From an uncultured Kofleriaceae bacterium (GTDB lineage: Bacteria > Myxococcota_A > Polyangia > Haliangiales > Haliangiaceae): 13,390 nt of DNA. Both the position numbers and the translations under genes were made by a program. Shown here in pieces: positions 321 to 13,390 of the stretch (position 1 is its first letter; each line of letters starts with the position of its first letter). A model generated the notes under the pieces. The model searched no databases, was not told the origin of the DNA, and was given only the letters and a program-made list of their open reading frames with translations. The stretch spans positions 56,518-69,907 of the forward strand of contig CAZUAR010000003.1 of assembly GCA_964617845.1 (NCBI GenBank), in the 5' to 3' direction.

Positions 321-1055
321 TTAGCGGCCTTGCGTCATCTTCAGCATCACGAGCGGCGTCTTCGCGATGATGCCGAGCTCGGTGCGCAGGAACGTACCCA
401 GGTTCTCCAGCGACGCGGTGTACGCGAGGTCGTAGAGCAGCTTGATCCGCATGTCGTCGGCGAGCGAGCCCTTGGTCTCGTCGAGCTGCCACGGGTTCTG
501 CAGCGTCGACGCGAGCTTTCCGATCTCCGATCCCTCGGGGATCGAGCCCGTGTAGCCGAGCGAGATCTGCGCGAGGCCCGTGATGCCGGGCTTCACGTCG
601 CGCATGCGCTCCTCGAACAGCGGGATCGCGTAGGAGAGCTGCTGGAGCAGCTCGGGGCGCTCGGGGCGCGGGCCGACGAGCGACATCTTTCCGCGCAACA
701 CGTCCCAGAACTGCGGCAGCTCGTCGAGCCGCGACTTGCGGAGGAACTTGCCGACGCGCGTGATGCGAGGATCATCGGCGCCCGCGACGACGACGCCCGT
801 GAACTTCTCCGCGTCCGGGATCATCGTGCGAAACTTGTGCATCTCGAACTCGTCGAACTCGTAGGTGCGCACGCCGTTCGCGCGCGTGACCTTCTTGAGT
901 GACCCCGCGCGGCGCTGCTTGAACATCACCGGGCCGGGGGAGTCGATGTAGATCGCAGCCGCGATGATTGGCAGGAGCGGCGCGGTGAGCACCATGCCGA
1001 CGGTGGCTCCGAGGATGTCGATCGCACGCTTCGCGATTTGAACGGGTCTTCGCAC
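321..1055 (-). CDS. Polyprenyl-phosphate sugar-1-phosphate transferase (bacterial sugar transferase family, PglC/WbaP C-terminal type); priming glycosyltransferase
   Basis: Seen in sequence. Family motifs are present: one N-terminal hydrophobic helix (ILGATVGMVLTAPLLPIIAAAIYI), then KFRTM, DELPQFWDVLRGKMSLVGPRP and KPGITGLAQI. The 90 residues of the ORF-track frame upstream of this are Arg-rich non-coding-like, so I put the start at the in-frame GTG at 1055-1053 (VRRPVQIAKRAIDILG...). A CTG at 1073 is the alternative. The stop is at 321. Confidence 0.8.
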   Translation of the reverse strand: MRRPVQIAKRAIDILGATVGMVLTAPLLPIIAAAIYIDSPGPVMFKQRRAGSLKKVTRANGVRTYEFDEFEMHKFRTMIPDAEKFTGVVVAGADDPRITRVGKFLRKSRLDELPQFWDVLRGKMSLVGPRPERPELLQQLSYAIPLFEERMRDVKPGITGLAQISLGYTGSIPEGSEIGKLASTLQNPWQLDETKGSLADDMRIKLLYDLAYTASLENLGTFLRTELGIIAKTPLVMLKMTQGR

Positions 1056-1210
1056 GAAGTGGTCTTCATGCAGACGCGAGACCAAGCGCAATTCGCAGGA
1101 GCTCCGCAGGTCATGCCGATGCAGAAGCGCACGTTGCGATCGAATCGCACGGGACGACGTGCGCGAGTGCCTCGAAGGTTCGCGTCGACGCGTGGCACGA
1201 GTGTTGATGT
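1056..1210. promoter_or_regulatory. Divergent intergenic region between the priming transferase gene (minus) and the kinase/STAS-led polysaccharide operon (plus); probable divergent promoters
   Basis: Inference from gene arrangement. It contains a short inverted repeat TGCGAT-N3-ATCGCA at 1135-1149. No promoter consensus could be assigned confidently in this high-GC sequence. Confidence 0.35.
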
Positions 1211-1678
1211 GTGTCCGGCGCGATGGCCGACAAGATCTGGCTGACCGTCCCCGGCGCGTTGCGCTATCGCGCGCTCGCCGTGCGCGTCGTCGCGGAGGCG
1301 GCGCGGTTGGTCTCGGGATCGCCACGCCGCGACGAGAACGATCTGCTCGCGAGCGACGTGCGCGACCCGTTCGATACGGCGGTGGTCAGCGCGTTCATGG
1401 AGATCTTCAACAACGTCGCGATTCACGCGTACCGGCGCGAAGCGACCGGCCGCATCGAGATCTCGATCACCGCCGGAGATCGCGAGATCGTGATCGAGGT
1501 TCTCGATCACGGCAGGCCGTTCGATCCGTCCAAGGTGCCGGCGCTGCCGTCGGAGCTGGACGATGCATCGCTCCCCGAGGGCGGCATGGGCATCCACATC
1601 GCGCGAACGATGCTCGACGACGTCTCGTATCAGCCCGGCCCACCGAACAAGTGGCGACTGTCGAAAGTGAGGACCTGA
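1211..1678 (+). CDS. RsbW/SpoIIAB-like anti-sigma factor / GHKL serine protein kinase (HATPase_c)
   Basis: Seen in sequence. N-box (AFMEIFNNVAIHAY), G1 (VLDHGRPFD) and G2 (EGGMGIHIARTM) boxes of the GHKL ATPase fold are present, and the size (155 aa) is typical of RsbW/SpoIIAB. GTG start at 1211; an ATG at 1220 is the alternative. Stop TGA at 1676-1678. Confidence 0.8.
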   Translation: MSGAMADKIWLTVPGALRYRALAVRVVAEAARLVSGSPRRDENDLLASDVRDPFDTAVVSAFMEIFNNVAIHAYRREATGRIEISITAGDREIVIEVLDHGRPFDPSKVPALPSELDDASLPEGGMGIHIARTMLDDVSYQPGPPNKWRLSKVRT

Positions 1679-1983
1679 TGATGACACCGTATGAAGTTTC
1701 TCGGTCGACCGATGCGACGCGGCTCGTGGTGCGCGGCTCGCTCGACATCAACACCGCGCCGGCGCTCGCCGAGGAGATCGACAAGATCATCGAAGCGAAG
1801 CCGACGAAGGTCGACGTCGATCTGACGCCGCTCGATCTCATCGACAGCTCGGGCGTCGCGGCGCTCGTGAAGCTGTACAAGGGCATTCGCAGCGCCGGCG
1901 GCCGCATCGCGATCTCGGGCGCGCGCGATCAGCCGCTCGCGATCTTCAAGCTGCTGCGCATGGACAAGGTCTTCGACCTCTAG
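1678..1983 (+). CDS. STAS-domain anti-sigma-factor antagonist (SpoIIAA/RsbV-like)
   Basis: Seen in sequence. The 101-aa protein carries the conserved phosphorylatable-serine motif LIDSSGVAALV and the STAS fold pattern. ATG at 1678 overlaps the upstream TGA by 1 nt (TGATG). AAGTGAGGA Shine-Dalgarno 7 nt upstream. Confidence 0.85.
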   Translation: MMTPYEVSRSTDATRLVVRGSLDINTAPALAEEIDKIIEAKPTKVDVDLTPLDLIDSSGVAALVKLYKGIRSAGGRIAISGARDQPLAIFKLLRMDKVFDL

Positions 1984-1989
1984 AACGCC

Positions 1990-3285
1990 ATGCTGCGCGT
2001 TCTCGCGATCACGAAGATCTTCCCCAACGCCGCCGAGCCGCTGTCTGCCCCGTTCAATCGGCAGCAGTTCGCAGCGCTCGCGCGGCACTGCTCCCTCGAG
2101 GTGATGGCCACGATCCCGTGGTTCCCGGGTGCGAGCCTCGTCCACGGCTCGAGCGCGGGAAAGCTCGTCGGTGTTCCCGGCGAGGAGACGATCGACGGCA
2201 TCACCGTCACCCATCCGCGCACGCTCTTCGTGCCGCGCCTCGCCCACGCGACGTGGGGGCCGCTGTACGCGGCGTCGATCGCGCGTGCGGTGATGCGCTA
2301 TCGGGGACGCGTCGACGTCGTGCTCGGCTCGTGGGCATACCCCGACGGGTTCGCGGCCGTGATCGCGGCGCGCATGCTCGGTGTGCCGTGCGTCGTGAAG
2401 CTGCACGGGAGCGACATCAACCAGATCGCGAAGCTGCCGGGTCCTCGCAAGCTGCTCGGGTGGGCGTTGCCGAGGGCCGCGCGCGTCGTCGCGGTGAGCC
2501 GCGCGCTCGCCGACGAGGTCGCGACGCTCGGCGTGCCGCGCGACAAGATCGCGATCGTCATGAACGGCGTCGATGCGTCGCTGTTCCATCCGCGCGATCG
2601 CGCGGGTGCGCGCGTGGAGCTCGGGCTCGACGAGAGGCCGCTCGTCCTGTACGTCGGCAACCTCAAGGCGGACAAGGGCGTCCTCGACCTCGCGAAGGCG
2701 TGGGAGCGCGTCGCCGCGCAGATGCCCGATGCGCGGCTCGCGATCGTCGGCGGTGGTCCCGCCAAGGACGAGCTCGCGGCCGCCGTCGAGCGGTTCGGCG
2801 GCAAGCTCGGCGAAGGTCGAGCGCGCTGTGCGAAGGATGATCGCGTGCTGCTCCTCGGCCCGCGGCCGCTCGCGGAGGTTCCGCTGTGGATGGCCGCGGC
2901 CGATGTCGTCACGCTGCCGAGCCACGCGGAGGGCACGCCCAACGTCGTGCTCGAGGCGCTCGCGTCGGGTAGGCGCGTGGTCGCTACCCGTGTCGGCGGC
3001 ATCCCGGATCTCATCACGCGAGGCGAGCTCGGCGCGCTGGTACCGCCGCGCGATCCCGACGCACTCGCCCGTGCGCTCGCGCTCGCGCTGCGCACACCGT
3101 ACATCCCCGCCACGGTCGCTGCTCTCGGCGCACGGGGTGGTTGGGACGCAAGTGCCTCCGCCCTGCACCAGGTGCTGCTTGGCGCGGCGAGTGCTTCGCA
3201 ACCGGGGACGTCATGGAGCGCCCCTCCCTCTCCCAGCTCGGAGACCGCTGGTACTCGTCCGAGGAGCGCATCACCGCCGCGATGA
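1990..3285 (+). CDS. Glycosyltransferase family 4 (GT-B; Glyco_trans_4 N-domain plus Glycos_transf_1 C-domain)
   Basis: Seen in sequence. N-terminus MLRVLAITKIFPNAAEP is typical of GT4. The C-domain has the EX7E-type region (PSHAEGTPNVVLEALASGRRVVATRVGGIP). ATG at 1990 lies 6 nt after the STAS stop. The last ~25 aa are low-complexity and overlap the next gene, so the exact C-terminus is uncertain. Confidence 0.85.
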   Translation: MLRVLAITKIFPNAAEPLSAPFNRQQFAALARHCSLEVMATIPWFPGASLVHGSSAGKLVGVPGEETIDGITVTHPRTLFVPRLAHATWGPLYAASIARAVMRYRGRVDVVLGSWAYPDGFAAVIAARMLGVPCVVKLHGSDINQIAKLPGPRKLLGWALPRAARVVAVSRALADEVATLGVPRDKIAIVMNGVDASLFHPRDRAGARVELGLDERPLVLYVGNLKADKGVLDLAKAWERVAAQMPDARLAIVGGGPAKDELAAAVERFGGKLGEGRARCAKDDRVLLLGPRPLAEVPLWMAAADVVTLPSHAEGTPNVVLEALASGRRVVATRVGGIPDLITRGELGALVPPRDPDALARALALALRTPYIPATVAALGARGGWDASASALHQVLLGAASASQPGTSWSAPPSPSSETAGTRPRSASPPR

Positions 3286-4328
3286 TCACGGAGCTGCAAC
3301 GCGTGCGCAGGCGCGCGGCGGCTCGGCCGTTCTTGACGCTCTTTCTCGCGGCACTCCTCACCTCGGCGCTCGCGATCGTGATCGTGACCAAGCACCGCAA
3401 GCTCGAGGCCGAGGTCGTCCTCGCGCTCACCGAGGGCACGCTCTCGAGCGACCACTCCGGTCTCGCGGCGCAGGAGCTGCGCGAATACGTCTCGTCGGTC
3501 CTGTTGTCCGACAAGAACGTCGCCGAGGTGATCGTGGATCAGGACCTCTATCGCATCCGCGAGCGCATGGGCATGGCCTACGCCATCACCGAGCTGCGGG
3601 AGCAACTCGAGGTCGACGTGTGGAAGAACACGTTCGTCTACTACCGCGACTCCGAGTCCAACGCGCGCAAGTCCGCGCGCATCGGCCTCACGGTGATCGA
3701 CACCGACCCCGACAAGGCATATGGCATCGCGCGCGCACTGGCTGACATCATGATCCGCACGCACGACGCCGAGCGCTTGAAGCTCACGAGTGCGCTCGCC
3801 GCACAAGTGCAGCTGATGCGCGAGACGGTCGAGTCGGAGCTGGAGAAGCTCGCCCACCGGATCAGCGAGAAGCAGGCGGCGATCGGCATCGCGTACAAGG
3901 ACGGCAAGAACGGCGTCGCGGCGGCGCTGATGGTCGACCTCGCGGATCTCGACGCGCGCCACAAGGACCTCGAGACTCAGCTCTCGCAGATCGCCACGAG
4001 CCGCGACGCCGTCGCCGACCAGATCTCCGCGGCCGGCCTCGACATCACGCTCGAGGTCGTCGCCGAGAAGCGACCGGATCGCCCTGTCACGTCGACGTTC
4101 GCGCTCGTGCTCGTCATGTGCGTCGTCGCGACAGGCGCGCTGATCGCGTCGGCGATGGTCGTCAGCACGTTCGATCCGCGCGTGCATCACGCCGACGACG
4201 TCGCCCGGCTCGGGCTTCCTGTCCTCGGTCACGTTCCCGCTTTCACCGGCGATCGCGTCGGTTCGTTACGCAAGCGCGGCGCACGCCGCAGTAGCTCAGG
4301 GGCAAGACTATGGCACTCGCACCGATAA
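3213..4328 (+). CDS. Polysaccharide co-polymerase-like inner-membrane protein (PCP/Wzz-like; two TM helices flanking a coiled-coil periplasmic domain), paralogue 1
   Basis: Seen in sequence. TM1 is FLTLFLAALLTSALAIVIVT. A roughly 270-aa hydrophilic, helical, Ala/Glu/Leu-rich domain follows. TM2 is FALVLVMCVVATGALIASAMVV. A C-terminal cytoplasmic tail carries DDVARLGLPVLGHVP, which resembles the BY-kinase-activating tail of PCP-2b proteins such as CapA and YwqC. ATG at 3213; a TTG at 3141 is an unlikely alternative. Family assignment rests on topology and the tail motif only. Confidence 0.55.
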   Translation: MERPSLSQLGDRWYSSEERITAAMITELQRVRRRAAARPFLTLFLAALLTSALAIVIVTKHRKLEAEVVLALTEGTLSSDHSGLAAQELREYVSSVLLSDKNVAEVIVDQDLYRIRERMGMAYAITELREQLEVDVWKNTFVYYRDSESNARKSARIGLTVIDTDPDKAYGIARALADIMIRTHDAERLKLTSALAAQVQLMRETVESELEKLAHRISEKQAAIGIAYKDGKNGVAAALMVDLADLDARHKDLETQLSQIATSRDAVADQISAAGLDITLEVVAEKRPDRPVTSTFALVLVMCVVATGALIASAMVVSTFDPRVHHADDVARLGLPVLGHVPAFTGDRVGSLRKRGARRSSSGARLWHSHR

Positions 4329-5818
4329 CTCCTCGCGACAAGCTGCAACGCATCACCGACCTCGCTCGCAAGACGGCGCGGTACTGGTGGATGATCGCTC
4401 TGTTCGCCCTCGTCGGCGGCGCGCTCTCGCTCGCGTTCGCGGTGTTCAAGCCGAAGAACTACCAGTCGTGGTCCACGCTGTTCTATCAGGAGCGAATCCA
4501 GTCGAGCCTGATGTCGCCGAACCGCGAGGAGATGGTCCAGCGCAACATCGGCGATCGCTACCGCGAGCTGTTGCTCGCGCGCTCGCAGCTGATGCAGATC
4601 GTGACCGACCCGGCGCTCGATCCGTTTCCCGACGAGGACGATGTCGAGGTGAAGATCGACGAGCTGCGCAAGGTCATCAAGTTCGAAGCGCGTGGCGCGA
4701 ACGCCTTCCGTATCAACTTCCGCGACACGGATCCGGCGCGCGCGAAGCGAGTGACCGAGAAGCTGACCTCGATGCTGCAGGCCAAGGACGAGGAGCTCCG
4801 CAACGATCAGGCGACGCGCACGGTGAACTTCGCGACCACCCAGAAGGAGGCGGCGGCCAAGGAGCTCGCGAAGAGCGAACAGGCCCTCGCCACCTTCCTC
4901 GCCGCGCACCCCGAGTTCGCCGAGGAGACGAGCCAGGGCAACTCCGAGGGCGCGTCGATCCGCGCCATCCGCGAGCCCAAGACCAAGAAGACCGGTAACA
5001 GCCGCCTCTACGCGCTCGAGCGCCAGCGCCAGCGCATCCAGGCGCGCCTCGACGCGAGCCCCGACGGTCCTCCGGTGCGCATCATCGCGCCGCCGAGCCC
5101 CGAGCGCGTCGCCGCCGAGGCCGCGGCCAACGAGGCACAGCGCCAGCTCACCGCGGCGCAGCGCGAGCTCGACGGTGCACTCAGCCGGTACACGGAGAAG
5201 CACCCCGAGGTGATCAAGGCGCAGGCGAACGTCGCGGCCGCGCAACAGCGCTACCGCACCGCGCAGGCCGCGGTGCCGCCGCTCGTCGAGACCGCCGTCG
5301 CCCCGACGTCCAAGCAGGACCGCGAGAAGCTCGAGAAGCAGCTGGCGCAGCTCGAGGAGCAGATCGCGAACGCGCAGTCGTCCGGCGACAAGAAGGACGC
5401 GTCGCAGACCGACAAGACGACGAACTGGGTCGTGAAGCTCGAGACGGAGCACGCGATCCTTCGCCGCGAGGTCTCCGAGCAACGCGAGCGCGTCGGCTCG
5501 CTCGCCGCGTCGGTGTTCCGCGCGCAGATCGACGCGAGCCAGAAGCTCGCCGAGCAGGGCGGCCGGCTCTCCGTCGTCGATCCGGCGTTCAAGCCCGTGA
5601 AGCCCACCGGCCCCGGCAAGACGATCTTTCTCCTCGCCGGCATGATGCTGTTCCTGACGCTCGGCACGGGGCTCGCGCTCGGCCTCGCGATGATCGACGA
5701 CCGCATCTACCACCGCATCGACCTCGACAACCTCGGTATCGGGGTTCTCGCCGTGATTCCGCCCGCGCAGTCCCTCAAGGGACTGAAGCCGGCGCCGAAG
5801 AAGGAGCAGCGCAAGTGA
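4310..5818 (+). CDS. Polysaccharide co-polymerase, PCP-2b type (Wzz N-terminal domain, long coiled coil, C-terminal TM and basic cytoplasmic tail; no fused kinase domain), paralogue 2
   Basis: Seen in sequence. Wzz-type N-terminus [37 protein letters not shown] (the P-x-Y-x-S-x-S-like pattern after TM1). Extended Q/A/E-rich coiled-coil segment. C-terminal [26 protein letters not shown] followed by [15 protein letters not shown] and a Lys-rich tail. ATG at 4310 overlaps the upstream gene by 19 nt. Confidence 0.8.
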
Positions 5819-6636
5819 CCACGTCGCGACCCAGCCTGACGATGACCGCGATCGGTCTCGGCAACCACAACCCGCGCACCACGCTCACGCGTGGCTCGAT
5901 GTCGGCCGTCGATCCACGCGCCACCGTGGCACTCGCTCCGACCGAGGCGCGTCCCCCCAGCGCGGCCGCGTGCGAGGTGCAGGTGATGCAGCACCAGCTG
6001 CCACGCCACGCACGCTCCGACCGGCGCCTCGCCGTCGCCCTCGCGCCCGACTCGGCGCGCGCCGCCGCGTTCCGCGTGCTGCGCCACCACCTGCTCGAGC
6101 TCGGCAAGCCGCAGTGCGTCGTCGTGACCAGCCCGCAACGCGGCGACGGCAAGACGACGACCGCGATCAACCTCGCGTGCGCACTGTCCGAGTGCGGCCG
6201 TGCGAGGGTGCTCCTCGTCGAAGCGCACCTGCGCCGCCCGCAGCTCGCCGGCGTGTTCGAGTTCGTGCCGCCTCGCTGCTTCGCGGATCAGCTGCTCCTG
6301 CATCGCAAGGATCCGCTGTCGCCGTGGACGCTCGTCGAGATCCCCGAGCTGCACCTGCACGTCGGCGCGATCAACCCGAAGTTCGAGCGCGGCCAGCTCC
6401 TCGACGGCCCCGCGTTCTCCATCGCGATGGAGCGCCTGCGCGTCGCCGGCTACGACCACATCGTCATCGACGCGCCGCCCGTCCTCGGCTCCGCCGACGT
6501 GAACCTGATGGCCGACGCGGCCGACACGGTGCTGCTCGCTCTCCGCGCGCGCCGCTCGACCGCGCGCGACCTCCGCGCGGCGATCGATCAGATCGGCGAG
6601 CGCAAGGTCGGCGGCACGGTCCTGGTCGAGGAGTAG
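5815..6636 (+). CDS. BY-kinase-family P-loop ATPase (CapB/Wze-like) lacking the C-terminal tyrosine cluster
   Basis: Seen in sequence. N-terminal RK helix [11 protein letters not shown]. Walker [21 protein letters not shown] at about 6127-6159. Walker A' is [11 protein letters not shown] at about 6208-6240, where the canonical DxD has become E-A-H. Walker B is HIVIDAPPV. The protein ends at ...[14 protein letters not shown] immediately after the last beta-strand, with no Tyr-rich tail. GTG start at 5815 overlaps the upstream stop (GTGA); the start codon is uncertain, and in-frame ATGs lie downstream. Confidence 0.8.
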
Positions 6637-6652: not shown

Positions 6653-8107
6653 CTAGCGGCGACAGGTCGCGATCTCGATCAGCTCGCGCCGGCTCCGCTC
6701 CCACACGCGCTCGTCGGTCGGCCAACCAGCGACGGGCATCGTGCGAGCGACGACCATCGCGGTCGCCATCGGATCGCACGCCTTCGCGAGCTCGAGCAGC
6801 TCGCGATCCTGCTGCCCGCGCCGCAGGGCCGCGAGTCGAAGCGTCGGACGGCATCCGCCGTCGGCCGGTAGCGCGAGGACGCCGTCGAGGTTGCCGTGAT
6901 CCTCGCCGTCGTCGAAGCTGACGGGGTCGCGGAGGTCGAGCGCGCGGCCCGGCAGCGGCGCGCCCTTGCGGTTGTGGCGGTCGTGCCAGTACAGCGCGTC
7001 CCACACGTACCACTGCGGGATGCCATCGCGATGCATGAGCCAGCCCCATGTCCTCGGACCTGGGGTCTCGGCGTCGAGGATCATCGCGCCCGAGTACGGA
7101 GGAAGTCCGTTGTAGGCCCACGCGCCGCTCCGGGGCGCGGGTCGGAGCTGGATGAATTGATCGACGAGCCCGAGCCACTCCGGTCTGGGCGGTGCAGTGA
7201 CCGCGAAGCGGAACGTGTTCGGTCCACCGCCCGCGGCGCGGATCACCGTGCCGAGCGCGACGACGTCCTGGATGCGCTTCGCGGTCCGGGGCTCGTCGAT
7301 CGGAATCGCGAACGGCACGTGTCCCGTGCCCCTCGTGGCGGCGATCCAGGCACGCACCTCGTCGCCGGCCTTCGCCGGATCGGCGGAGATGACCACCGGC
7401 ACGTCGCGGATGCCCGCGAAGTCGGCCTTGCGGCTGGGCCACCAGTCGATGTGGATGTCGGGGGTGAGCAGCACGCCGTGATCGCGGAACATCGACATGC
7501 ACGCGCGTTCGGCGGCGCTGGGAACCGCGCGCGAGGGCATCGCGCCCTTCGAGGCCCATGCGAGCTCGCGAGGGTCTTCGTAGGCCCACACGCGCGGCGG
7601 ACGGGTCGGGATCGTGACGTCCGCGACGGCGAGCTCGACCGGGTATCGCGTGTCTCCGACGATCAGCGCGCCCTGCAAGCTCCCGATGGCCATCTCGCGT
7701 GGAACGCGAACCTCGACGTACCGCACGTGCGATGGGCTCGATGGCGATGGGCGCGGGATGAGGCCGTCCGCGTACCGCCCCTTCCCCGCGCTCGCGCCGT
7801 ACAGCCCGGGCGTCGAGGGGCGAGCGACCTCGATGGCCTCCACATCGAACACCCGCACGTCGACACCTTCGAGCTCGAAGACGATGGGCGCGTCGTTCGA
7901 TGTGACGACCTGAAGGCCGATCGTCTCGCCGCGCGCCGCGACCAGCGATAGCCGCTCGCCGTCGAACCACGGCGTGACACGCGGGAGCGGATCGCCGATC
8001 CGGTAGCGCGTCGACTCGCCGAGCACCGCGATCGATGGCCCTGGATCGGTCGCCCCGGCGGGATCGCAAGCAGCGAGCGCCAGGGCACAGGCGAGGACGC
8101 GCGACAT
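6653..8107 (-). CDS. Lipoprotein of unknown function (484 aa), candidate polysaccharide-active hydrolase by genomic context only
   Basis: Seen in sequence. ATG at 8107-8105. Lipobox MSRVLACALALAAC|D (LAAC, with +2 Asp). Natural, Trp/Tyr-rich composition (for example WAYNGLPPYSGAMILDAETPGPRTWGWLMHRDGIPQWYVWDALYWHD). The overlapping frames are Arg-rich artefacts. The ORF-track frame upstream of this ATG (to 8344) looks non-coding. I do not recognise a family. Confidence 0.65.
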   Translation of the reverse strand: MSRVLACALALAACDPAGATDPGPSIAVLGESTRYRIGDPLPRVTPWFDGERLSLVAARGETIGLQVVTSNDAPIVFELEGVDVRVFDVEAIEVARPSTPGLYGASAGKGRYADGLIPRPSPSSPSHVRYVEVRVPREMAIGSLQGALIVGDTRYPVELAVADVTIPTRPPRVWAYEDPRELAWASKGAMPSRAVPSAAERACMSMFRDHGVLLTPDIHIDWWPSRKADFAGIRDVPVVISADPAKAGDEVRAWIAATRGTGHVPFAIPIDEPRTAKRIQDVVALGTVIRAAGGGPNTFRFAVTAPPRPEWLGLVDQFIQLRPAPRSGAWAYNGLPPYSGAMILDAETPGPRTWGWLMHRDGIPQWYVWDALYWHDRHNRKGAPLPGRALDLRDPVSFDDGEDHGNLDGVLALPADGGCRPTLRLAALRRGQQDRELLELAKACDPMATAMVVARTMPVAGWPTDERVWERSRRELIEIATCRR

Positions 8108-8162: not shown

Positions 8163-9470
8163 ATGGCAACGCCAACCCGCGTAGAGACTCGGATCTCGCC
8201 GACGGAGGGCGATCCGTCGAGCGAGCGAGCGCAGAGCGACGCGCGCGCGGGCGCACGTGTGGCCGCGCAGCACGCGAGGGTCGTCGCTCCCGTCGAATCG
8301 CTGCCGATCATCGCGTTCGCGAAGGACTGGCACGAGGATCCCACGTCGAACCATCACGTGCTGCGCGAGCTCGCGAAGACGCGGCGCGTGCTGTGGCTCA
8401 ACTCGCTCGCGACGAGGACGCCGAGCCTCGCGAGCGGTCGCGACCTCGGCAAGATCAAGCGCAAGCTCGTCGAGTTCTCGAAGGGTCCGGTGAACGTCGA
8501 GAACGACCTGTGGGTGTTCTCGCCGCTCGTGCTTCCGCTGCCGCACGAGGCGTGGGCGCGATCGATCAACAAGCAGGTGCTACGCGCGACGATCCGTGGC
8601 CTGCGCTGGAAGCTCGGGATCGACAGGTTCCAGCTGTGGACGTTCCTCCCGAACAGCGCGGACTACGTCGGGATGCTCGGCGAGGAGTCGAGCGTCTACT
8701 ACTGCGTCGACGAGTGGTCGCTGTTCTCGTATCTGGATCGCGAGCAGACGGTCGCGGCCGAGAAGGCGCTGCTCGGCAAGGTCGATGCGGTGTTCGCGAT
8801 CAACCACGCGCTGGCAGAGGCGAAGCGAGGCGTGAACGCGTCGACGTTCGTGAGCCCGCACGGCGTGGATCACGCCCTGTTCGCGAGCGCGCTCGACGAG
8901 GCGACCGTGGTGCCGGCAGACATCGCCGCGATCTCGGGCCCGCGGATCGGGTTCTACGGGACGATCCGCGACTGGGTCGACCTCGAGCTCGTCGCCCATG
9001 TCGCGAAGGCGCGACCCGCGTGGTCGATCGTGTTGCTCGGCCAGGTGCTGTGCGATGCGAGTGCGATCGCCGGGCTGCCGAACGTTCACCTCCTCGGGCA
9101 GAAGCGGCACGACGAGCTGCCCGCGTACTGCAAGGCGTTCGACGTCGGCATCATTCCGTACCGGATCGATGACCGGATGACGTTCGTCAATCCGCTGAAG
9201 CTGCGCGAGTACCTGTCGGCGGGGTTGCCGGTCGTGTCGACGCCGGTGCCCGAGGTCGCGCGGTACCGCGAGTGGTGCCGGATCGCGGCGACGCCACCGG
9301 AGTTCGTCGAGGCGATCGAAGCGGCGCTCGCCGAGTGCAAACCGGCGACGCGCGCCGCGCGAAGCGCCGCGATGAAGAACGAGACGTGGTCGGCGCGCGT
9401 CGCCGACGTGATGCGAACTGTCGACGAGATCAGCCAGAGCAAACAGACCAAGGGAATGAAGGGAACATGA
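8163..9470 (+). CDS. Glycosyltransferase, GT-B fold (GT4/group-1 like)
   Basis: Seen in sequence. C-terminal nucleotide-sugar-binding region GIIPYRIDDRMTFVNPLKLREYLSAGLPVVSTPVPEV and the overall GT-B pattern. Start is uncertain: ATG at 8163 leaves only 55 bp to the divergent lipoprotein gene, a GTG at 8259 is the alternative, and the first ~40 aa are low-complexity. Stop TGA at 9468-9470. Confidence 0.75.
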   Translation: MATPTRVETRISPTEGDPSSERAQSDARAGARVAAQHARVVAPVESLPIIAFAKDWHEDPTSNHHVLRELAKTRRVLWLNSLATRTPSLASGRDLGKIKRKLVEFSKGPVNVENDLWVFSPLVLPLPHEAWARSINKQVLRATIRGLRWKLGIDRFQLWTFLPNSADYVGMLGEESSVYYCVDEWSLFSYLDREQTVAAEKALLGKVDAVFAINHALAEAKRGVNASTFVSPHGVDHALFASALDEATVVPADIAAISGPRIGFYGTIRDWVDLELVAHVAKARPAWSIVLLGQVLCDASAIAGLPNVHLLGQKRHDELPAYCKAFDVGIIPYRIDDRMTFVNPLKLREYLSAGLPVVSTPVPEVARYREWCRIAATPPEFVEAIEAALAECKPATRAARSAAMKNETWSARVADVMRTVDEISQSKQTKGMKGT

Positions 9471-11551
9471 GCACCAAGAAGCTGCGCGCCGGCATGGTCG
9501 GCGCAGGAAACATCTGCGAGTTCCACGTCGCTGCCATCCAGAAGCTGGCGAGCGCGCCCCAGAGCGAGGTCGAGCTGATCGGCGTCGCAGACCTCGACGC
9601 GGAGCGTGCCGCGGCGAACGCCGAGAAGTGGGGCACGCGGGCGTATGCGGATCTGGACGCGCTCGTCGCGGCGGGCGCCAACGTGATCCACGTGCTCACG
9701 CCACCCTCGTCGCACGCGGCGATCGCGCGCGCGGCGCTCGAGCGTAGATGCCACGTGCTCGTCGAGAAGCCGATCACCGAGGACGCCGAAGAAGCACACG
9801 CACTCGGCGAGCTGGCGGCGAAGAAGGGGCTGACGATCAGCTGCAACCACTCGCTGCTGTTCGACCCGCAGATCGTGCGTGCGCTCGACATGGTCAAGGC
9901 TGGCAAGCTCGGCGAGATCGTCGGCGTCGACATCCTGCGCGGAAGCGAGTACCCGCCGTACGAGGGCGGGCCGCTGCCGCCGTGGTACCGCGACGCGGGC
10001 TATCCGTTCCGCGACATCGGCGTGCACTGCCTCTATCTGATCCAGGAGCTGCTCGGGCCGATCACCAACGTCGACGCGAAGTGGCGCTCGCTCGGCGGCG
10101 ATCCGAACCTCGCGTTCGACGAGTGGCGCGCGCTCGTCGCGTGCAAGCGCGGCCTCGGGCAGCTGCAGATCACCTACAACACGAAGCCGATGCAGTCGCA
10201 GCTGATCATCCACGGCACCAAGGGCGTGCTGCGCGTCGATCTGTTCGCGATGTTCCACGGCAAGCGCGCGTCGACGCCGCTGCCCAAGGCGGCCGAGCGC
10301 TTGATCAACGCGTTCACCGATTCGCTGCAGCCGCTCGTCGACGTTCCGGTGAACGTCGTGAAGTTCGTGCGCAAGCAGGTGCAGTCGTATCAGGGCCTGC
10401 GCGACCTCGTCGCCGACTTCTACGCGCGGCTGCTCGGCAACAAGGAGCCGGCGGTCTCCGTCGACGACGCGGCCAACGTCGTCGCGTGGGTCGAGAAGGT
10501 CGCGCGCGCGGCCGACGCGGATCACGCGCGGAACCTGTCGCGGTTCCAGACGTCGGATCGGATCCCGTTCGTCGTGACCGGTGCGTCGGGGTCGCTGGGC
10601 AAGGCGGTCGTGAACCGCTTGCTCGCCGACGGACATCGCGTGCGCGTGTTCCAGCGCAAGATCCCCGCGCAGGCGCGCGAGGGCGTCGAGTACGTGTTCG
10701 GCAACCTCGGCGATCCGAAGGCGGTCGACAAGGCGATCCGCGGCGCCGAGGTCGTCATCCATTGCGGCGCGGCGATGAAGGGCGGCTGGCCGGAGCACAA
10801 GGGCGGCACCGTCGTCGGCACGCAGAACGTGATCGATGCGTGCAAGAAGCACGAGGTGCGGCAGCTCGTGCACATCTCGTCGATGTCGGTCGTCGATTGG
10901 GCCGGCAGCGCCGGGACCACCGTCGGCGAAGGCGCGGCGCTCGAGCCTCGCCCCGACGAGCGCGGCGCGTACACCCGCGCGAAGCTCGAGGCCGAGAAGC
11001 TCGTGCGCGAGGCAGCGGCGGGCGGCTTCCCCGCGGTGATCCTGCGCCCCGGGCAGATCTTCGGCGGCGGGATCCCGCTGATCAACGGCGCGGTCGCGCG
11101 CAACGCCGGCGGACGCTGGCTCGTCCTGGGCGACGGAACGATCGAGCTACCGTTGATCTATATCGACGATGTCGTCGACGCGATCATGCGCTCGGTGCAG
11201 CTGCGTCTCGTCAGCGGCGAGGTGATCCAGCTGATCGATCCCGAGAAGCTCACGCAGGCCGACGTGCTCGCGCTCGCCGGCGAGAACAAGCCGCAGCTCA
11301 AGGTGCCGCGCTCCGTCGTGTTCGCGCTCGGCAAGCTCAGCGAGCTGCCGCTCGGTGCGCTCGGCAAGCCGAGCCCGATCGCGCTGTACCGCCTGCAGTC
11401 GGCCCTCTCGCGCATGCACTACGGCAGCGACGTCGCCAAGAACGTCCTCGGCTGGGCGCCGCGCGTCGGTGTTCGCGAGGGCATTCGGCGCGTGACCGGG
11501 GCGGCGCCACGCGGCAGCGCGACACCCCCACTGCGCGTCGCGGCGCCTTGA
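9467..11551 (+). CDS. Fusion protein: N-terminal Gfo/Idh/MocA-family NAD(P)-dependent oxidoreductase plus C-terminal extended-SDR NAD-dependent epimerase/dehydratase-like domain (694 aa); putative nucleotide-sugar modifying enzyme
   Basis: Seen in sequence. ATG at 9467 overlaps the upstream stop (ATGA). Gfo/Idh/MocA Rossmann region MVGAGNICEFHVAAI and LVEKP at 9491 onward. A second Rossmann motif VVTGASGSLGKAVVNRLLADGHRVRVF at about 10566-10640, with the SDR catalytic pattern S (HISSMS) and YTRAK (YxxxK). The upstream 65 codons of the ORF-track frame are Arg-rich and non-coding-like. Confidence 0.8.
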   Translation: MSTKKLRAGMVGAGNICEFHVAAIQKLASAPQSEVELIGVADLDAERAAANAEKWGTRAYADLDALVAAGANVIHVLTPPSSHAAIARAALERRCHVLVEKPITEDAEEAHALGELAAKKGLTISCNHSLLFDPQIVRALDMVKAGKLGEIVGVDILRGSEYPPYEGGPLPPWYRDAGYPFRDIGVHCLYLIQELLGPITNVDAKWRSLGGDPNLAFDEWRALVACKRGLGQLQITYNTKPMQSQLIIHGTKGVLRVDLFAMFHGKRASTPLPKAAERLINAFTDSLQPLVDVPVNVVKFVRKQVQSYQGLRDLVADFYARLLGNKEPAVSVDDAANVVAWVEKVARAADADHARNLSRFQTSDRIPFVVTGASGSLGKAVVNRLLADGHRVRVFQRKIPAQAREGVEYVFGNLGDPKAVDKAIRGAEVVIHCGAAMKGGWPEHKGGTVVGTQNVIDACKKHEVRQLVHISSMSVVDWAGSAGTTVGEGAALEPRPDERGAYTRAKLEAEKLVREAAAGGFPAVILRPGQIFGGGIPLINGAVARNAGGRWLVLGDGTIELPLIYIDDVVDAIMRSVQLRLVSGEVIQLIDPEKLTQADVLALAGENKPQLKVPRSVVFALGKLSELPLGALGKPSPIALYRLQSALSRMHYGSDVAKNVLGWAPRVGVREGIRRVTGAAPRGSATPPLRVAAP

Positions 11552-12612
11552 TGCGCGCGGCGATGCGTGACGAGGTCCTCGCGTCGCGCGTGCTGCGCGG
11601 CGCCGTGATCCTCGCCGCGCTCGCATGCGCGGCGGCCGCGCGGGCCGACACGATCGTCACCGTGCAGCTGTCGCCGGACGGCCAGCAGCTCGCGCAGCAG
11701 CTCGGCGTCACGCCCGAGCAGCTCGCCGCGCAGGTGACGCGCGCGGTCGACGACGCGTACCAGACGGCGAACATCGAGGAGTTCCTCGAGTCGTTCGTCG
11801 ACGCGACGTCGTTCTCGTCGCGCGGCATCGGTGTCGACTACGCCTCGCAGCCGACGGGCTTCATCGCGGGCTTCGCGGTCAACCTCGCCGCCGCGGGCGA
11901 CCAGGAGCTGCGCGCCGACGAGCGCCCGACGGCGGGCCTCGCCGCGAACGTCTCGGTGCTCGTCGGGATGAACCTCGCCGAGTGGAAGCTGTCGCGTTGG
12001 ACGATCTTCGCGAACGGGTTCTATCGCAACGCGGAGCTCGAGCGCCTCGACGGCACGATCCTCAGCGCGGGCGCTCACGTGCAGTACACGATCATCCCCG
12101 CGCCCGCGGACGGCGGCACCGGGACGTTCGTGCGCTGGATCGGCCTCGCGGCGACGAGCGGCCTCGAGCTCACGCGCTGGTCGCTCGGCACGGGCTCCGA
12201 CACGCTGTCCACGGACTTCGACGTCGGCAGCGGCAACAACACCGCGCACGTCGACGTCGACTCGACAGGACAGCTCGATCTGCGCTCGCAGGCGATCACG
12301 GTGCCGCTCGAAGCGACCACCGGCCTGCGCGTCATGTGGCTCGCGACGCTCTACGCCGGCGTCGGTGTCGACTTCACGCTCGGCAACGCCGACGTCACCG
12401 CGAACATGAACGGCATCGCGCGCGCCGACGACGGCCGCGAGCTCGGCACGGTCGCCATCACCGGCGAGGGCTACGCGAACGGATCGCCCGCGACGCTGCG
12501 CGCGCTCGTCGGGCTGCAGCTGAACCTGTGGAAGCTGAAGCTGTTCTCGCAGCTCAACGCATCGCAGTCGCCCGCGGTGAGCGTCGCGTTCGGTCTCAAG
12601 TTCGTGCAGTAG
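11551..12612 (+). CDS. Secreted beta-rich protein, putative outer-membrane beta-barrel (candidate polysaccharide-secretion porin by context)
   Basis: Seen in sequence. ATG at 11551 overlaps the upstream TGA by 1 nt (TGATG); a second in-frame ATG sits at 11563. Signal peptide RVLRGAVILAALACAAAARA|DT. Many short amphipathic strands rich in W/Y/F (for example RWTIFANGFY, FVRWIGLAATSGLELTRWSLG, LRVMWLATLYAGVGVDFTLG). The C-terminus is AVSVAFGLKFVQ, with alternating hydrophobics and F at -3. Only the 3' third of the 954-aa ORF-track frame is real; the upstream part is an alternate frame of the fusion gene. Confidence 0.5.
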   Translation: MRAAMRDEVLASRVLRGAVILAALACAAAARADTIVTVQLSPDGQQLAQQLGVTPEQLAAQVTRAVDDAYQTANIEEFLESFVDATSFSSRGIGVDYASQPTGFIAGFAVNLAAAGDQELRADERPTAGLAANVSVLVGMNLAEWKLSRWTIFANGFYRNAELERLDGTILSAGAHVQYTIIPAPADGGTGTFVRWIGLAATSGLELTRWSLGTGSDTLSTDFDVGSGNNTAHVDVDSTGQLDLRSQAITVPLEATTGLRVMWLATLYAGVGVDFTLGNADVTANMNGIARADDGRELGTVAITGEGYANGSPATLRALVGLQLNLWKLKLFSQLNASQSPAVSVAFGLKFVQ

Positions 12613-13390
12613 GCTCGGCGAGCCCCGCGGCGACGAGGATCGCGCGCGCCACGCGGGCACCGTCGACGGCCGCCGACACGATGCCGCCCGCGTAGCCCGC
12701 GCCCTCCGCGCACGGATACAGCCCCGCGATGTCCGGCGACACGAGCCGCTCGGGATCGCGAGGCACGCGCACCGGCGAGCTCGTTCGCGACTCCACGCCG
12801 ACGAGGACCGCCTCCTCCGTCAGGTAGCCGCGCATCTGCTTGTCGAAGTGCACGAGCGCTTCGCGCAGCCGCGCCGCGAGCGGGACACCGATCGTGTCGA
12901 GCACCTCGCCGACATCGGTGGCGAACAGCCCGGGCTGATAGCTCGTGCCGGGCACCGTCGACGACGCCTTGCCGCGCACGAAGTCGGTCGCCCTCGTCGC
13001 CGGCGCGCGCAGCTCGCCACCGCCCGCGCTCGCCGCCGCGCGCTCGAGCTTCGCCTGCAGCTCTACGCCGCCCATCGGGCGCGCGAGGCCCAGGCGATCG
13101 AGATCCGCGAGCTCCACCGCCACGACCAGCCCCGAGTTCGCGTACGGCGAATCGCGCCGCGACAGGCTCATGCCGTTCACCACCACGCCGTCCGCTTCCG
13201 TCGACGCCGGCACGATCCAGCCGCCGGGACACATGCAGAACGAGAACGCCCCGCGCCCATCGCTCGGCGTGAACGCCAGCCGATACGGCGCCGCCGGCAG
13301 CTTCGGATGCCCGGCCACGCGCCCGTACTGGATGCGATCGATCAGCGGCTGCGGATGCTCGATGCGCACGCCCATCGCGAACGGCTTTGC
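12596..13390 (-). CDS. FAD-dependent oxidoreductase-like protein (C-terminal portion only; the 5' end lies beyond the window)
   Basis: Seen in sequence. The frame is open to the window end: AKPFA precedes the first in-window Met. Conserved-looking segments include CMCPGGWIVPASTEADGVVVNGMSLSRRDSPYANSGLVVAV and GLYPCAEGAGYAGGIVSAAVDGARVA, which recall uncharacterised FAD-dependent dehydrogenases (COG2509-like). That assignment is from memory, not a search. It overlaps the convergent upstream gene by 17 nt. Confidence 0.5.
   Translation of the reverse strand, partial: AKPFAMGVRIEHPQPLIDRIQYGRVAGHPKLPAAPYRLAFTPSDGRGAFSFCMCPGGWIVPASTEADGVVVNGMSLSRRDSPYANSGLVVAVELADLDRLGLARPMGGVELQAKLERAAASAGGGELRAPATRATDFVRGKASSTVPGTSYQPGLFATDVGEVLDTIGVPLAARLREALVHFDKQMRGYLTEEAVLVGVESRTSSPVRVPRDPERLVSPDIAGLYPCAEGAGYAGGIVSAAVDGARVARAILVAAGLAEPTART

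Follow-up and report, generated by a model that had tools for sequence, protein, structure and literature searches.

Why two complete NAD(P)-binding oxidoreductases of different superfamilies should be encoded as a single polypeptide within a polysaccharide locus, and whether their active sites serve the same sugar, is the question raised by a 13,390-nt stretch of DNA from an uncultured Kofleriaceae bacterium (assembly GCA_964617845.1, contig CAZUAR010000003.1, positions 56,518 to 69,907), the whole of which is here termed the window. The gene concerned encodes a 694-aa protein in which a Gfo/Idh/MocA (GFO) dehydrogenase is followed by a helical linker and by a short-chain dehydrogenase/reductase (SDR) of the extended type. 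The analysis makes it very likely that this protein is a bifunctional oxidoreductase of a glycan pathway whose halves work together, and the best explanation overall, to which we assign a probability of about one half, is that it acts as a cytoplasmic bifunctional sugar-tailoring oxidoreductase of the exopolysaccharide pathway in concert with the glycosyltransferase encoded upstream. The more specific proposal of an oxidise-then-reduce relay between the GFO and SDR halves is advanced tentatively, at odds somewhat short of even.

The fusion gene (9467..11551, + strand) is supported by an uninterrupted open reading frame (ORF) of 694 codons and a stop, with zero internal stops, by Pfam matches, by codon-position composition and by its homologues. 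Because the GC content of the window is high (about 69%) and long spurious ORFs are plentiful in it, GC content was checked by codon position. A single frame shows a third-position GC content (GC3) of 0.87-0.96 in all 300-nt segments starting from 9451 to 11251, and of 0.84 in the segment starting at 11401; the domain junction (10,520-10,570) lies well within this continuous frame, and GC content is higher at the first than at the second codon position, as expected for a gene on the + strand. The motifs from which the first-pass annotation had proposed two complete NAD(P)-binding domains in one ORF are all in place (GAGNICEFH at aa 12-20, LVEKP at 98-102, TGASGSLGKAV at 371-381 and YTRAK at 502-506), and the Pfam scan that it had suggested as a check finds both domain types above their gathering scores. 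The ATG at 9467 has a Shine-Dalgarno-like AAGGGAA 5 nt upstream and forms an ATGA overlap with the stop codon of the upstream glycosyltransferase gene, an arrangement that suggests translational coupling; the fusion stop, in turn, forms a TGATG overlap with the ATG of the next gene (11551).

The GFO dehydrogenase (aa 6-258) is complete and presents the characteristic elements of the Gfo/Idh/MocA superfamily, namely PF01408, glycines of the GxGxxG/A type, an EKP motif and a D-x3-H motif. The N-terminal Rossmann domain (aa 6-128; 9482..9850, + strand) matches PF01408 (GFO_IDH_MocA) with an E-value of 7.9e-26 and 91.5 bits, versus a gathering cutoff of 24, and carries G12xG14, H20, D42 at the end of β2 and E100-K101-P102. 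The GFO C-terminal α/β domain, of the substrate and dimer type (aa 138-255; 9878..10231, + strand), matches GFO_IDH_MocA_C3 (PF22725; 3.9e-13, 49.9 bits versus a cutoff of 27) and contains the catalytic motif D183-x3-H187. An Asp at the end of β2 in GFO proteins is a classic determinant of NAD over NADP. In NCBIfam the N-domain scores highest with the model for the archaeal UDP-GlcNAc 3-dehydrogenase (NF040723), at 102.8 bits versus an equivalog cutoff of 450, and by sequence the two are thus related at the superfamily or clade level only. Searches of the PDB by sequence return DgpA, GnnA and WlbA, and the best structural relatives by fold are GenD2, KanD2 and DgpA. The kinship with C3 oxidoreductases of sugars put forward at first is therefore borne out by all of these relatives.

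The C-terminal half qualifies as an extended SDR on the basis of its TGxxGxxG motif, its Ser-Tyr-Lys triad (YxxxK) and its length of at least about 300 aa, including a C-terminal substrate subdomain. This domain (aa 366-680; 10562..11506, + strand) carries T371-G-x2-G-x2-G378, V392-R393-x3-R397, S471 and Y502-x3-K506, and its Pfam matches over aa 369-579 (Epimerase, 6e-31; 3Beta_HSD, 4e-25) exceed the gathering scores. The basic VRxxxR segment that follows β2 resembles that of NADPH-using extended SDRs. Among NCBIfam models, those for OleD (NF042422; 132 bits versus a cutoff of 580), HpnA (TIGR03466; 103 versus 367.65) and SdmB (64 bits) score highest, and the GalE, RmlD and PseB models only about 26-28 bits, the cutoff of the GalE-type TIGR01179 being 262.3. 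PDB matches by sequence comprise Gox2253 (3wj7, 8e-16), an archaeal epimerase and NSDHL, and in the ranking by fold the NDP-sugar 4-epimerases come close behind Gox2253. The initial description of this half as an epimerase/dehydratase is not supported by sequence, which is nearer to OleD, HpnA, 3β-HSD and Gox2253 than to GalE, RmlD or PseB. OleD, HpnA, SdmB and NSDHL act on lipid substrates; neither oleABC nor hpn genes are found in the locus context, which is that of an exopolysaccharide.

Between the two halves lies a family-specific connector (aa 261-358; 10247..10540, + strand), delimited from the secondary structure and predicted local distance difference test (pLDDT) values of an AlphaFold2 model as a loop at 261-290 and four helices (275-285, 287-301, 309-323 and 332-358). 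The model, built from 38 sequences, reaches a pLDDT of 84 and a predicted TM-score of 0.79, presents two Rossmann domains joined by the connector and, being confident, is consistent with a fixed two-domain assembly. The loop at aa 261-290 (10247-10336) has a pLDDT of only 40-46, and yet L272, P273 and R278 are invariant or almost so across the family; this loop could serve as a mobile lid or belong to the domain interface. Elsewhere in the connector G310, like P273, is at least 90% conserved, and the separately encoded GFO protein of an Acidobacteriota locus described below (L079) can be aligned as far as aa 325 of the fusion, that is, into the connector. In the model the linker, which is conserved, forms a structured module of helices rather than a flexible tether. 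No PDB chain spans both halves, either by sequence or by fold, the TM-score normalised on the query being at most 0.40.

The architecture had been described as unusual, in the sense of rare, a description that does not hold. A search of 5.8 billion proteins yields 1,439 matches to the fusion protein, and the 120 matches listed are 666-737 aa long, are 74-92% identical to it and all possess both domain sets, their named sources being Kofleriaceae and Myxococcota metagenome-assembled genomes (MAGs). Scanning one genome per species identifies 77 loci, nearly all of them in Kofleriaceae, Haliangiales or Polyangia MAGs, and includes an orthologue with 69% identity in the cultured Labilithrix luteola DSM 27648 (L048). 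In two of the loci (L068 and L069) the tblastn match, of about 60% identity, is limited to approximately residues 130-676 of the fusion, for which diverged N-termini, frameshifts or truncations are possible causes. When 1.84 billion representatives of 50%-identity clusters are searched with HMMER, 572 of them match at E<=1e-30; the best 150 of these 572 comprise 75 full-length proteins in the GFO-SDR order, 10 full-length proteins in the SDR-GFO order, 23 shorter proteins with both domains and, for the rest, single-domain pieces. The representatives with an N-terminal SDR and a C-terminal GFO domain (P0180, P0194, P0205, P0219, P0231, P0243, P0247, P0253, P0256 and P0268) are 690-730 aa long. 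Three others (P0134, P0141 and P0235) are longer, at 828-1039 aa, and presumably contain an extra domain.

Profile searches extend the family across several phyla. They reveal a large clade of proteins of about 705 aa and about 42% identity in the Acidobacteriota ('Ca. Acidiferrum'), with a member in the Planctomycetota, and a second group (group II), which shares 25-32% identity with the window protein and occurs in the Methylomirabilales, the Nitrospirota, the 'Deltaproteobacteria' and one Hodarchaeota MAG. Members of the GFO-SDR family align end to end over about 670-720 aa, linker included, keep both catalytic sets and range from 25 to 92% identity. On these sequence comparisons the GFO-SDR architecture is genuine, old and not rare, and the window protein is an ordinary member of a large family for which no characterised member was found.

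Conservation within the family was assessed on an alignment of 37 full-length representatives that are 25-57% identical to the window protein. In these, G12, G14, H20, D42, P80, H83, E100-K101-P102 and H187 are invariant in the GFO half, as are T371-G372, G375, G378, H432, T452, K506, R527 and P614 in the SDR half, and S471, Y502, R393, R397 and P273 are among the residues conserved in at least 90% of the sequences. D183 is present in the window protein and in most family members. Among 439 full-length members, the EKP motif is kept in 437, TGxxGxxG in 428, YxxxK in 399 and VRxxxR right after β2 of the SDR in 397. Since these motifs are conserved across the family, both active sites must be under selection and a pseudo-enzyme is present in neither half.

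The genomic context of the family points consistently to glycan synthesis. Across the 77 loci, a glycosyltransferase gene lies directly upstream of the fusion in almost all the Polyangia loci for which upstream DNA is available, and the pair is retained in loci (L032, L037, L045, L048 and L070) from which the genes for the polysaccharide co-polymerase (PCP), the kinase and the family 4 glycosyltransferase (GT4) are absent. Because it persists without the rest of the cluster, the glycosyltransferase-fusion pair is the conserved unit in the Polyangia. In the window, the partner gene (8163..9470, + strand) encodes a 435-aa, TuaH-like glycosyltransferase of the GT-B fold (Glyco_trans_1_4, 2.7e-10; 85 bits to the TuaH model versus a cutoff of 550).

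Outside the Polyangia, all ten loci examined, which encode eight homologues, are glycan loci, with genes for GT4 and family 2 (GT2) glycosyltransferases, Wzx/Wzy, PCP, ABC transporters, Asn-synthase-like amidotransferases and deacetylases distributed among them. The Acidobacteriota loci L079 and L080 present a GT4 gene upstream together with Wzx, NodB-type deacetylases and an Asn-synthase-like gene, and the Planctomycetota locus L081 combines GT4, a heparinase II/III-like gene, the fusion, a GT1 gene overlapping the fusion stop and an ABC-2 transporter (the shorter L082 has the same protein). In the Methylomirabilales locus L083 the GFO-SDR gene is accompanied by GT4, a GT2-GT4 fusion, GT2, DegT, a deacetylase, an Asn-synthase and PMT_2, and in L084 by Wzx, GT4, two GT2 genes, PMT_2 and Poly_export; the Nitrospirota locus L085, the locus L086 and the archaeal MAG L087 provide further contexts of this kind. 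The only reverse-order fusion for which the context was examined (L088, 8001-10118) lies between GT2 and Wzx genes, with Wzy nearby. Group II contexts, as seen in L083-L085, place small GT2, GtrA and PMT_2 (GT-C) genes beside the fusion, as is characteristic of polyprenyl-phosphate-sugar routes. With an identity of 24-28%, the neighbouring glycosyltransferases of different phyla find no support as orthologues, so that outside the Polyangia only the adjacency of a glycosyltransferase holds.

The locus L079, and likewise L080, harbors a split version of the system in addition to a full-length fusion. In L079, a 358-aa GFO gene (1312-2388) overlaps a 757-aa gene (2385-4658) that combines an OleD/HpnA-like SDR with a GT1 domain and a NodB deacetylase, and the split proteins are 26% (GFO, over 332 aa) and 28% (SDR, over 336 aa) identical to the corresponding halves of the window fusion. 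A glycosyltransferase thus neighbours the fusion in some loci, and in L079 one forms a single protein with the SDR. The occurrence of GFO and SDR domains of these types in either order of fusion, and in one instance as split genes side by side, points to an obligate association of the two and is a classic mark of proteins that are functionally coupled. As a separate observation, an Asn-synthase-like amidotransferase of about 630-655 aa (GATase_7 plus Asn_synthase) recurs in L079, L083, L085 and L086, in the last of which it lies directly downstream of the fusion. Such amidotransferases are typical of uronic-acid amidation, which hints at amidated uronic acids in the polymers of these four loci; none is encoded in the window.

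A working model for the fusion can be outlined from these elements. The GFO half would convert a secondary hydroxyl group of a sugar to a ketone in an NAD+-dependent oxidation, with the invariant Asp42 indicating NAD+ and with Lys101 and His187 as the catalytic pair, and the position oxidised would most likely be C3, since the nearest GFO relatives are C3 oxidoreductases. The SDR half, through Ser471, Tyr502 and Lys506, would then reduce this ketone, probably with NADPH, as suggested by the basic VRxxxR motif that follows β2; both cofactor assignments are inferred from motifs. The net outcome would be the inversion of one stereocentre, yielding an epimer, or a sugar otherwise redox-tailored, which might be used by the partner glycosyltransferase or have just been installed by it. 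The substrate could accordingly be a nucleotide sugar, the kind on which GnnA and WlbA act, or, by analogy with GenD2, KanD2 and DgpA, a sugar after its transfer, here to a lipid-linked repeat unit. The nucleotide-sugar substrate assumed in the first-pass annotation, its channelling of a keto sugar between the active sites and its product specific to this polymer are thus all inferences. The usual consumer of a 3-keto sugar is an aminotransferase, and neither the window nor the 22-kb locus of a close relative (L078) encodes an aminotransferase, an acetyltransferase or any other keto-sugar-handling enzyme; in the absence of such an aminotransferase, a reductase is favoured as the consumer of the keto sugar. 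This choice is also favoured by OleD, the family model with which the SDR half scores highest, which is named in NCBIfam as a 2-alkyl-3-oxoalkanoate reductase and hence is a keto-reducing enzyme.

Of the alternatives to this model, the one that survives best is that the two domains catalyse separate steps of a pathway with no shared keto intermediate, the fusion serving only to equalise the amounts of both activities. The GFO half might, for example, be a 3-dehydrogenase feeding an unlinked aminotransferase, and the SDR half a 4-epimerase, a 4,6-dehydratase or a 4-reductase; with domains acting independently, the protein would represent an ordinary co-pathway fusion. We regard this as unlikely, because the recurrence of the same pairing, whichever domain comes first and in one case as split genes that overlap, suggests more than loose membership of a common pathway, because the window and L078 lack keto-sugar-handling enzymes, and because the linker is conserved, structured and helical.

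Less probable again, although it shares the oxidation and reduction steps of the working model, is that the fusion operates as an epimerase at the lipid-linked or polymer level, the GFO half oxidising and the SDR half reducing, with inversion, a sugar already borne by a polyprenyl carrier or a repeat unit, where the upstream glycosyltransferase, for instance, might have placed it. The sequence affinity of the SDR half to OleD, HpnA, SdmB and NSDHL, with their lipid substrates, is in keeping with this possibility. So are GenD2, KanD2 and DgpA, to which the N-domain is structurally most akin and which act on glycosides after glycosyl transfer (PMC4340712). The tight coupling of the fusion to a glycosyltransferase, the fusion of the L079 SDR to a glycosyltransferase and a NodB-type deacetylase, and the placement of group II fusions with GT2, GtrA and PMT_2 (GT-C) genes point in the same direction, and a precedent for epimerisation in two such steps exists in DprE1/DprE2 (PMC4366402, PMC6017230). 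On the other hand, the N-domain lies just as near to nucleotide-sugar enzymes (GnnA, WlbA and the archaeal UDP-GlcNAc 3-dehydrogenase), the C-domain closely resembles NDP-sugar 4-epimerases in fold, the fusion has no transmembrane or obvious membrane-anchoring segment, and the GT2/GT-C context belongs to the group II loci and not to this window. Were such an activity to be present, the family would constitute a widespread functional counterpart of the mycobacterial DprE1/DprE2 with a non-homologous oxidase half, one domain using NAD+ and its partner NADPH, and a rare epimer (allo- or gulo-configured, for instance) would be expected in the exopolysaccharides of many uncultured phyla.

It is improbable, in our assessment, that the SDR half is instead an oxidative decarboxylase of the UXS, ArnA or NSDHL type acting on a uronic-acid sugar, with the GFO half carrying out a further oxidation or reduction. 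What speaks for it is the presence of NSDHL, a decarboxylating 3-dehydrogenase, and of the EvdS6 decarboxylase among the SDR matches, the resemblance of the neighbouring glycosyltransferases to the teichuronic-acid enzymes TuaH and TuaC, and the recurrence of Asn-synthase-like amidotransferases in distant loci. Lastly, an artefact joining two separate genes through mis-assembly, a frameshift or a missed stop, against which the first-pass annotation had recommended a check of the junction, can be excluded for practical purposes, given that one GC3 frame runs unbroken across 10,520-10,570, that the same architecture, 670-720 aa long, recurs at 77 loci of independent genomes and in over 1,400 proteins, and that the junction region is itself conserved among homologues.

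The rest of the window, with its glycosyltransferase, PCP and phosphoglycosyl transferase genes, agrees with the polysaccharide setting originally proposed for the fusion, and by its gene content the window is an exopolysaccharide locus. The upstream part (321..6636, mixed strands) was delineated with Pfam, NCBIfam, the gene calls of the 89%-identical L078 and synteny in 33-40 Kofleriaceae loci. It begins with a polyprenyl-phosphate glycosylphosphotransferase (ORF 321-1325, - strand, the true start being probably near 1091), followed by an RsbW-like kinase (1211-1678, + strand; HATPase_c_2, 94% identical to its L078 orthologue), a STAS protein (1675-1983, + strand), a TuaC-like GT4 (1990-3285), a PCP-like coiled-coil protein with two transmembrane segments and no Pfam match (3282-4328, + strand), a Wzz/GNVR PCP with weak matches (4310-5818, + strand) and a P-loop protein resembling bacterial tyrosine kinases (5815-6636, + strand), which has a Walker A motif (GDGKTT) and lacks the C-terminal tyrosine cluster. 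Together, the RsbW-like kinase and the STAS protein make up a partner-switching pair, encoded between the genes for the phosphoglycosyl transferase and for the first glycosyltransferase, and the STAS gene is conserved at that position in about 25 related loci. The presence of this pair suggests that polymer synthesis is controlled post-translationally or through a sigma factor. Between this block and the glycosyltransferase-fusion pair lies a lipoprotein gene (6653-8107, - strand) encoding about 485 aa with the signal MSRVLACALALAAC, for which no match was obtained in Pfam or NCBIfam; in most Kofleriaceae loci it is kept upstream of the pair in divergent orientation.

Downstream of the fusion, 11551..12612 (+ strand) encodes a secreted 353-aa protein, identified by its GC3 frame and signal peptide, that resembles the Lsa36 family of Leptospira surface proteins (82.8 bits versus a cutoff of 90) and that is possibly a β-barrel. 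It constitutes a variable accessory gene: only some related loci have it (L001, L003, L007 and L011, among others), and the close relatives L002 and L078 do not. Two other candidates for the downstream gene, the ORFs 11625-12692 (+ strand) and 11419-12660 (- strand), were rejected as Arg-rich and out of frame, GC3 favouring 11551-12612. Beyond the Lsa36-like gene lies a convergent gene for an FAD-dependent protein.

The interest of the fusion resides both in its possible chemistry and in its prevalence, since the GFO-SDR family is common, with hundreds of sequence clusters in at least six phyla, and no study of it was found. If a keto intermediate does pass between the domains, the protein would provide a compact means of inverting or re-tailoring a stereocentre without a separate epimerase. 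Such a relay would help to predict unusual monosaccharides in the exopolysaccharides made by bacteria of soil and sediment, among them the Kofleriaceae, Acidobacteriota, Planctomycetota and Nitrospirota, and could supply a single-polypeptide biocatalyst for the regioselective epimerisation of sugars. The conserved glycosyltransferase-fusion pairing defines a concrete two-gene unit, for which the L. luteola orthologue offers a cultured host amenable to genetics.

Comparison with known systems places the fusion among enzymes that share one of its halves. No characterised bifunctional enzyme with both domains emerged from the PDB (by sequence or fold), from curated NCBIfam models or from the literature searched; the whole protein reaches the cutoff of no curated NCBIfam model, those for UDP-GlcNAc 3-dehydrogenase, OleD, HpnA and GalE all being far from satisfied, and public annotations describe its homologues as 'NAD-dependent epimerase/dehydratase family protein' or 'predicted dehydrogenase/nucleoside-diphosphate-sugar epimerase'. 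The UDP-sugar 3-dehydrogenases (WbpB/WlbA, GnnA and the archaeal enzyme), which are also encoded in glycan loci, have in common with the N-domain of the fusion their fold, the Lys of EKP and the D-x3-H motif, but they are single-domain proteins of about 310-350 aa that deliver a 3-keto product to an aminotransferase, whereas the fusion has an SDR partner and a helical extension of about 100 aa after the GFO domain. The aminoglycoside 3''-dehydrogenases GenD2 and KanD2, which are 22-24% identical to the fusion, have pseudo-oligosaccharide antibiotics as their substrates and a transaminase as their coupled partner, and are not fused to an SDR. On the SDR side, Gox2253, OleD, HpnA and the 3β-HSD/NSDHL-like enzymes act on β-keto acids, sterols or unknown substrates; none of them is fused to a GFO domain, and the fusion scores far under their equivalog cutoffs. 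An extended SDR is also part of ArnA, a bifunctional nucleotide-sugar enzyme in which the partner is a formyltransferase. Conversely, in MviM-WecE a GFO dehydrogenase is fused to the next enzyme of its pathway, an aminotransferase (PMC2064935). A parallel in logic to the proposed relay is offered by DprE1/DprE2, the decaprenyl-phosphoryl-ribose 2'-epimerase, in which a sugar hydroxyl is converted to a ketone and then reduced, with stereochemical inversion, by an SDR-type enzyme (PMC4366402, PMC6017230). The likeness is one of analogy only, because DprE1 is a flavoenzyme unrelated to Gfo/Idh/MocA proteins and is a separate protein from DprE2, the pair acting on lipid-linked ribose in the Actinobacteria, whereas the oxidase half of the fusion is an NAD-type Gfo/Idh/MocA domain in place of an FAD oxidase subunit and is covalently joined to its SDR.

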